This document shows positions 2,819 through 3,109 of a stretch of 8,648 nucleotides of DNA, piece by piece. A model generated the notes under the pieces. The model searched no databases. It was not told the DNA's origin and saw only the letters and a list, made by a program, of their open reading frames with translations. A program made the translations under genes and the position numbers. The stretch comes from a virus (taxonomy: Duplodnaviria > Heunggongvirae > Uroviricota > Caudoviricetes). Within the stretch, counting starts at the first letter, position 1, and each line of letters begins with the position of its first letter. The stretch is from IMG/VR virus record IMGVR_UViG_2671180417_000011; one strand, given 5' to 3'.

Positions 2819-3037
2819 TTACTCCATACCGCAGACGGTCCCGGTATCTCCCGGGTTAACCCAATCGGCTTCAGGCTGCTGCGGTTGGTGTGACTGCACA
2901 TTGGTGTGACTGCACATCTTCACAGACGGTCCCGGTATCTCCGGGTTAACCCAATCGGCTTCAGGCTGCTGCGGTTGGTGTTGTTGCTGGCGAAATTCTT
3001 CCAGATGTGGCAGAATTATTCCCGTGTATTGCTCCAT
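2819..3037 (-). CDS. 72-aa ORF built from duplicated initiator-gene sequence; possible small protein or duplication remnant
   Basis: ATG at 3037 with AGG 6 nt upstream; encodes QPQQPEADWVNP twice, echoing QPQQPEAD in the initiator. Spans repeat copies 2 and 3. Sits between cII stop (3052) and initiator start (2798). Confidence 0.3.
   Translation of the reverse strand: MEQYTGIILPHLEEFRQQQHQPQQPEADWVNPEIPGPSVKMCSHTNVQSHQPQQPEADWVNPGDTGTVCGME
2832..2890. repeat. Copy 2 of the ~59-bp direct-repeat module (upstream of initiator gene)
   Basis: cagacggtcccggtatctcccgggttaacccaatcggcttcaggctgctgcggttggtg; nested inverted repeat cccgg-N6-ccggg and palindrome gggttaaccc. Confidence 0.85.
2885..2916. 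repeat. Perfect 16-bp tandem duplication TTGGTGTGACTGCACA x2
   Basis: 2885-2900 and 2901-2916 are identical; lies between copies 2 and 3 of the large module. Confidence 0.9.
2923..2980. repeat. Copy 3 of the ~59-bp direct-repeat module
   Basis: Near-identical to 2832-2890 with a 1-bp deletion (tatctccggg vs tatctcccggg). Confidence 0.85.
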
Positions 3038-3109
3038 GCCCTGCCTGAATATCAGATGTTCATCAGGATTTGCTCAGAACGTCCGGCCCCAACCGGACGT
3101 TTTTTATTT
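3026..3109 (+). ncRNA. Candidate OOP-like antisense sRNA overlapping the cII 3' end (5' end not resolved)
   Basis: Inferred from the terminator position by analogy with lambda OOP RNA, which overlaps the cII 3' end and ends at an intrinsic terminator. Start coordinate is a guess from a typical 70-85 nt length; no confident promoter hexamers found. Confidence 0.3.

Follow-up and report, generated by a model that had tools for sequence, protein, structure and literature searches.

A probable oop gene, diverged from that of phage lambda, opposite the 3' end of cII in a lambdoid prophage

The stretch of viral DNA analysed here (IMG/VR record IMGVR_UViG_2671180417_000011, Caudoviricetes; 8,648 nucleotides, referred to as the window in the following) very probably carries the oop gene of a lambdoid prophage at positions 2988-3109 of its plus strand. 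We expect this gene to have a weak sigma-70 promoter with an extended -10 element (pO), to yield an RNA of about 83 nt whose first nucleotide is G3024, and to end in a terminator of its own (tO). Comparison with other lambdoid phages supports the view that the element at 3024-3106, which runs antisense to the 3' end of cII, is a diverged orthologue of lambda oop and does not just resemble it in geometry. In the following, we describe the locus, its terminator and its candidate promoter, weigh other explanations for the observed conservation, and discuss where the window departs from lambda.

The locus and its relationship to lambda oop

The window covers the immunity and replication region of an Escherichia coli lambdoid prophage, in an orientation opposite to that of the lambda map. 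The order of its genes, with cI on the plus strand and cro, cII and the replication genes on the minus strand, is the lambda order, and its plus strand is the counterpart of the lambda l-strand, from which OOP is produced. The features needed here are:

3800-4507, plus strand: cI, with HTH and Peptidase_S24 domains
3465-3743, minus strand: cro
3052-3348, minus strand: cII, the antisense target (open reading frame; Pfam Phage_CII, E = 6.5e-26), with its stop codon at 3052-3054
3024-3106, plus strand: predicted OOP RNA, about 83 nt, +1 at G3024 (covariance model and alignment to lambda oop)
3024-3051, minus strand: the spacer between cII and ORF72 (3038-3051) and the first 14 nt of ORF72 (ATG at 3037-3035), covered by the RNA
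2819-3037, minus strand: ORF72, a reading frame of 72 codons
1716-2798, minus strand: DnaD-like replication initiator
969-1709, minus strand: DnaC-like loader

The CII protein of the window is 69-77% identical to lambda-type CII proteins. The predicted RNA overlaps the last 55 nt of cII, stop codon included (3052-3106), and the overlap in lambda is identical. Likewise, lambda OOP (77 nt; pO-oop-tO, ~38675-38599, l-strand) is placed on the same strand and at the same point with respect to cI, cro, cII and the replication genes. The length of about 83 nt, with the 3' end in the U-tract, is estimated by analogy, from the 77-nt lambda RNA and a 6-nt insertion in the window.

In a direct alignment to lambda 38569-38749 (l-strand), the window is 65% identical to lambda oop overall and 78% identical in the 3' domain, with only about 50% identity in the 5' half of the RNA. 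Common to both are the -10 region, the terminator and a GGATTTG(C/T)TCAGAACG block, which appears in the two RNAs as the conserved GGAUUUG(C/U)UCAGAACG. For a wider comparison, we gathered the equivalent antisense segments from 15 lambdoid phages, located via their CII proteins: lambda, 21, the 434-like HK629, HK022, HK97, mEp234, PA28, BP-4795, 24B, an Stx1 phage, phiv205-1, a Wanchaivirus, two P22-like Salmonella phages and 75/02 Stx. A hairpin followed by a T-run sits at the same codons of the CII tail in all 15 loci, and the records of phage 21 and HK629 have oop annotated at this site. A covariance model (R1, from alignment A2) built on nine distinct OOP alleles of other lambdoid phages, none of them from the window lineage, yields a single significant match in the window with filters off (3024-3108, plus strand; 48.7 bits, E = 1.7e-8). 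This match spans the full model (positions 1-79 of 79) and recurs in five related loci, and the next-best match in the window is the same hairpin read on the other strand (E = 0.047). It starts at G3024, 7 nt after the motif CAGAAT, just as lambda OOP starts 7 nt after CATAAT.

A preliminary description of this DNA, made from the sequence alone, had pointed to an OOP-like geometry. This geometry is confirmed and, as the alignment and the R1 match indicate, extends to homology with lambda oop in both sequence and structure; the 5' end guessed at the time (3026) lies 2 nt from the G3024 predicted by homology. The relationship is shown by direct alignment and covariance modelling because blastn did not reach lambda: in its 'distant' mode, with queries of 146 or 128 nt, its hits were confined to the same allele and a few matches of 57 nt, the region being too short and too diverged. 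An Rfam scan of the window at E <= 1 gave no match at 3024-3109, which is uninformative since lambda's own oop is equally without a match; Rfam 15 has no OOP family, and R1 shows that one could easily be made.

The region around oop is 98-100% identical to phages 75/02 Stx, POCJ13, phiSTEC1589-Stx1c and PhiR5_2. Of 5,426 complete E. coli genomes, 81 carry the window allele in prophages, O104:H4 outbreak strains among them; it also occurs in six phage records, such as those of the Stx phages 75/02 Stx, POCJ13 and phiSTEC1589-Stx1c. E. coli FORC_069 is 100% identical over queries of 181 and 128 nt around oop, and O104:H4 2011C-3493 is 99.2% identical over the 128-nt query. The feature tables that we inspected hold no RNA annotation at the locus, just 'CII' and 'hypothetical protein', and we found no relevant mention of oop in the literature on this phage lineage (POCJ13, Diegovirus, phiSTEC1589). 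OOP tilts the decision between lysis and lysogeny by a mechanism that has been textbook biology for 35 years, and it therefore has an indirect bearing on toxin release in Stx phages. The window itself is of little importance beyond annotation; what it adds is a diverged allele with a weaker predicted promoter and no LexA-type box. Earlier reports describe OOP-like sequences from Stx phages (PMC5488031; PMC12197685), and OOP-type RNAs antisense to c1/cII have been detected experimentally in P22 and BTP1 (PMC13397905; PMC7067206). The P22 terminator is unrelated in sequence to that of the window (PMC13397905, table), and the likeness to P22 and BTP1 OOP is one of position and function only, whereas the sequence homology of the window is with lambda.

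[quoted passage not shown] By analogy, transcription of oop, cleavage by RNase III and an effect on lysogeny may be expected in the window phage. An RNA of about 83 nt would be made from pO, end at tO and form a perfect duplex with the pR transcript, made up of 55 nt in cII, the 14-nt spacer and 14 nt beyond it. RNase III would cut this duplex, the cII part of the message would decay, and the resulting fall in CII would reduce transcription of the repressor-establishment type and shift the decision to lysis. Transcription from pO, being convergent, might in addition lower the amount of pR read-through that reaches the replication genes. The 5' end of cII (3326-3367, plus strand) is where a pRE-type establishment promoter is expected; it contains a CII-box-like TTGC-N6-TTGT, a motif that by itself is at chance level, followed by TTGTGA-16-TATATT aimed at cI. 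On the far side of cI, 126 nt past its stop codon, lies a strong G+C hairpin, CCCGGC...GCCGGG plus TTTTATTT (4633-4650, plus strand), where the cI (maintenance) transcript probably terminates.

The terminator and conservation of its helix

The 3' part of the locus consists of the following elements:

3076-3109, plus strand: tO, intrinsic terminator with an 11-bp stem-loop (3076-3103) and the tract T6ATTT (3100-3109)
3076-3086, plus strand: 5' arm of the stem, AGAACGTCCGG
3087-3092, plus strand: loop, CCCCAA
3093-3103, plus strand: 3' arm of the stem, CCGGACGTTTT
3100-3109, plus strand: tail, TTTTTTATTT

The preliminary description had placed a plus-strand terminator with an 8-bp GC-rich stem and a 'T9-like tract' at 3079-3109, 27-57 nt from the last base of cII, and had held that it cannot terminate cII itself. 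All of this stands, with some refinement. The GC-rich core, ACGTCCGG/CCGGACGT, is extended by three basal pairs (A-U, G-U, A-U) to a stem of 11 bp, the tract reads T6-A-T3, and the distances agree with the cII reading frame at 3052-3348. Counted over its full extent, tO occupies the stretch 25-58 nt from the 3' end of cII; being inside the gene and antisense to it, it cannot terminate cII.

A pattern scan of the window lists 20 terminator-like sites, compared with 10.0 +/- 3.4 in shuffled sequences, a total that is not itself remarkable. Among these sites, tO ranks first as the strongest (11 pairs, 6 of them G-C); it is distinguished by its stem length, not by the number of such sites in the window. 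Since the scan lists no minus-strand site at this location, tO is predicted to be unidirectional. The 84-nt segment 3026-3109 folds with -26.4 kcal/mol (z = -4.17), a value matched by one of 200 shuffles.

Across 11 distinct alleles, the 11-bp helix is paired in 121 of 121 cells, compared with 33-65% in slid controls. Three of its pairs have changed on both sides in a compensatory manner, and the covariation score was reached in none of 500 shuffles. One of these changes, from C-G to U-A (alignment columns 59/77), is private to the window lineage; apart from this pair, the window differs from the homologous lambda tO by one U-G to C-G change and by its loop sequence. Likewise, alleles of the HK022/HK97/Stx1/PA28 type carry their terminator at the same cII-tail codons, with covarying stem pairs. 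At the protein level, the residues encoded by the stem differ from allele to allele (RPAATER, SPAATED, SPVAAGD, RPVCKTER, RPVGAGR), and the last 17 residues of lambda CII are dispensable for its activity but required for regulation by OOP (PMC3349717). Given that the tail is variable and dispensable while the pairing stays, conservation acts on the RNA or DNA structure and not on the peptide.

The same pattern is seen at close range. In an alignment of five variants from the window lineage, the terminator and the TG, -10 and -35 motifs of the promoter are invariant, and their flanks differ by four substitutions and a 2-nt deletion. The hairpin is also invariant in four aligned, diverged E. coli or phage variants of the window allele. 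Loss of the hairpin where cII is kept had been named as an outcome that would refute the OOP interpretation; instead, the hairpin is conserved, with compensatory changes, in all lambdoid cII loci examined.

The candidate promoter and alternative explanations

The candidate promoter consists of two elements:

2988-2993, plus strand: candidate -35 of pO, TGGCGA (three of six matches to TTGACA; 17-nt spacer to the -10)
3008-3016, plus strand: extended -10 of pO, TG-g-CAGAAT, aligned with lambda TGtCATAAT (hexamer at 3011-3016)

The extended -10, with its TG at 3008-3009, precedes the 5' end given by the covariance model by exactly 7 nt, and lambda pO has a TGn-extended -10 at the same distance from its G start. 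The pattern TGNYANAAT matches the window only here on either strand (3.0 matches expected). The hexamer CAGAAT agrees with the consensus at four of six positions, including the key A2 and T6, which makes it weaker than those of the 14 other loci (CATAAT, five of six). The -35 is unrelated to that of lambda pO. Its position matches CTGGTA(T/A) in pO of the HK97/HK022/P22 type; alleles of the HK022/HK97/Stx1/PA28 type share the architecture of the window and a similarly weak CTGG..-type -35. From -19 to -1, 13 of 19 positions match other alleles, and the alignment shows no similarity to other oop alleles upstream of about -19, in agreement with the mosaic boundary that Hayes and co-workers described at -19 of pO (PMC3349717). 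Taken together, the predicted pO of the window is plausibly weaker than that of lambda.

The promoter had initially been considered not identifiable by eye. Homology now provides a candidate, TGgCAGAAT at 3008-3016, while a generic promoter scan of the window remains silent at this site. This silence carries little weight because the same scan, when calibrated, found lambda pO but also missed that of HK022.

A further difference concerns the LexA-type box CTG-N10-CAG, which in lambda lies across the oop +1 (PMC5869508, citing Lewis et al., 1994). Ten of the 15 other phage loci have it, including lambda, 21, HK022, HK97 and those of the PA28 and BP-4795 types; a search at the window pO found none, and it is also missing in 75/02 Stx, 24B and the P22-like alleles. 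To judge from these alleles, the box is not a defining feature of the OOP family. Similarly, the 5' 33 nt of HK022/HK97/Stx1/PA28-type alleles (the 'high homology region' of PMC3349717) show almost no variation and include the box, whereas the window lacks it and matches about 70% of the positions in a by-eye comparison. None of the differences between the window and lambda is a family-defining feature.

The strength of the promoter is central to the question of whether the locus is still active. Terminator and partial RNA could have been inherited as a fossil together with the 3' end of cII, with pO dead and no significant OOP RNA being made. The poor -10 and half-matching -35, the mutation of ATG/CATAAT to CTG/CAGAAT, the silent promoter scan and the diverged 5' domain with its insertion all fit such a scenario. 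We nevertheless consider it unlikely: the extended -10 TG is retained, TG, -10 and -35 stay invariant in the five variants while their flanks vary, the scanner overlooks pO of the HK022 type as well, and the lineage-specific C-G to U-A exchange, by preserving the hairpin, speaks for selection having gone on after divergence.

Two other explanations accept the hairpin as functional without a discrete OOP RNA. One possibility is that it serves mainly to end longer antisense RNAs initiated further up on the plus strand, within the repeat array or the replication gene, and thereby shields cII and cro from antisense read-through. An intrinsic terminator does halt any plus-strand transcript that reaches it, and the region 2819-2990 is repetitive; yet the promoter scan shows no promoter-like site on the plus strand between 1700 and 3000, and such a role would not account for the homology of 3024-3075 to the OOP body, nor for a full-length model match that begins 7 nt after a -10 motif. 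We regard this as very improbable. The other possibility, that the inverted repeat is kept for the sense strand, be it for the C-terminal peptide of CII or for a structure in the cII mRNA, draws on the fact that the T-run corresponds to AAA AAA (Lys-Lys) in cII of all alleles and may thus be a mere by-product of lysine codons. It can hardly be reconciled with a tail that is dispensable (PMC3349717) and varies widely under unchanged, complete pairing, with the occurrence of hairpin and subsequent U-run on the plus strand only, or with the conservation of the OOP body and -10 motif upstream, and we deem it extremely improbable. An oop gene expressed from its own weak promoter is the reading that we favor.

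The RNA 5' end, ORF72 and the repeat array

The window departs most clearly from lambda at the 5' end of the RNA, where minimum-free-energy and centroid folds agree on a local hairpin:

3040-3067, plus strand: 5' hairpin of the RNA, with CCUG/CAGG and UGAAUAU/AUGUUCA pairing

Its apex, i.e. the closing pair and loop at 3052-3054, is the complement of the cII stop codon. Among the five variants, this stem has a single substitution (G3058A, in related strains), by which a U-G pair becomes U-A. There is little pairing in the first 14-16 nt of the RNA (3024 to about 3039), with a helix of at most 2 bp in the minimum-free-energy fold and none in the centroid. This local hairpin takes the place of the long-range 5' stem of lambda (stem-loop I, in which the 5' end pairs with the GGAUUUG region), which does not form in the window fold. 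Since the 24B and P22-like alleles lack it as well, the stem is a trait of the lambda/HK022 subtype and not of the whole family.

The two phages also differ in what lies beneath the RNA 5' end. Lambda OOP stops just before the Shine-Dalgarno sequence of O, and the lambda -10 CATAAT contains the start codon of the downstream gene. In the window, this ATG has become CTG in CAGAAT; a new ATG lies in the same frame, 24 nt upstream of it (3037-3035). The RNA 5' end covers the candidate start codon and ribosome-binding site of ORF72. The replication module differs too, O/P in lambda and DnaD-like/DnaC-like in the window, and therefore the lambda-type coupling between pO and replication need not apply.

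ORF72 itself is probably not a conserved gene. It is composed largely of the repeat array described below, and matches only phrog_2751, a family of unknown function, with no match in Pfam or NCBIfam; related records annotate it as 'hypothetical protein'. In E. coli 23CRST049, where the repeat copy number differs, it is cut to 41 aa and unannotated. Its ATG and weak Shine-Dalgarno sequence, under the OOP 5' end, are conserved; by our reading of the aligned variants, all four substitutions in its first ~20 codons are non-synonymous. It is thus doubtful whether ORF72 is a real gene overlapped by OOP. Likewise, a plus-strand reading frame running through oop (2906-3115, 69 aa) is best seen as a mechanical ORF, its middle changing frame in a related strain.

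In the repeat array (2829-2983), a tandem 16-mer, TTGGTGTGACTGCACA x2 (2885-2916), separates two direct repeats, each about 60 nt long (2829-2891 and 2920-2981); the array ends 5 nt from the -35 of pO. A third, diverged copy lies inside the DnaD-like gene (2057-2142), and the array of E. coli 23CRST049 (L016, 1211-1521) has a 113-bp unit in 2.7 copies. Judged by its layout, the array looks iteron- or origin-like. The DnaD-like gene also harbors a hexanucleotide repeat, TTCCTG x 4.5 (2304-2330), which gives the replication protein a central (EQ)n tract.

These features could mean that oop has been rewired to a replicon unlike that of lambda, in which an array bound by the initiator sets pO, and OOP controls both cII and the entry of ribosomes into the replication operon. 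This idea arises because the 5' 28 nt of the RNA extend over the spacer and over the start codon and candidate ribosome-binding site of the first reading frame downstream of cII, and because pO lacks a LexA-type box and has its -35 next to a variable array that duplicates an internal segment of the DnaD-like gene. If it were true, replication initiation would be coupled directly to the lysis-lysogeny decision, unlike in lambda; we consider it quite unlikely.

Other small RNA candidates were found at a distance from oop. One of them, DicF-like and equipped with a hairpin and T-run of its own, lies in the pL-direction operon upstream of kil (6712-6761, plus strand), scoring 29.2 bits, below the Rfam gathering score of 48. 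Directly after it, a weak match to the Rfam sRNA family STnc100 (6763-6957, plus strand; 27.8 bits against a gathering score of 47) enters the start of the kil-like ORF at 6925-7164 with its last ~33 nt (6925-6957).
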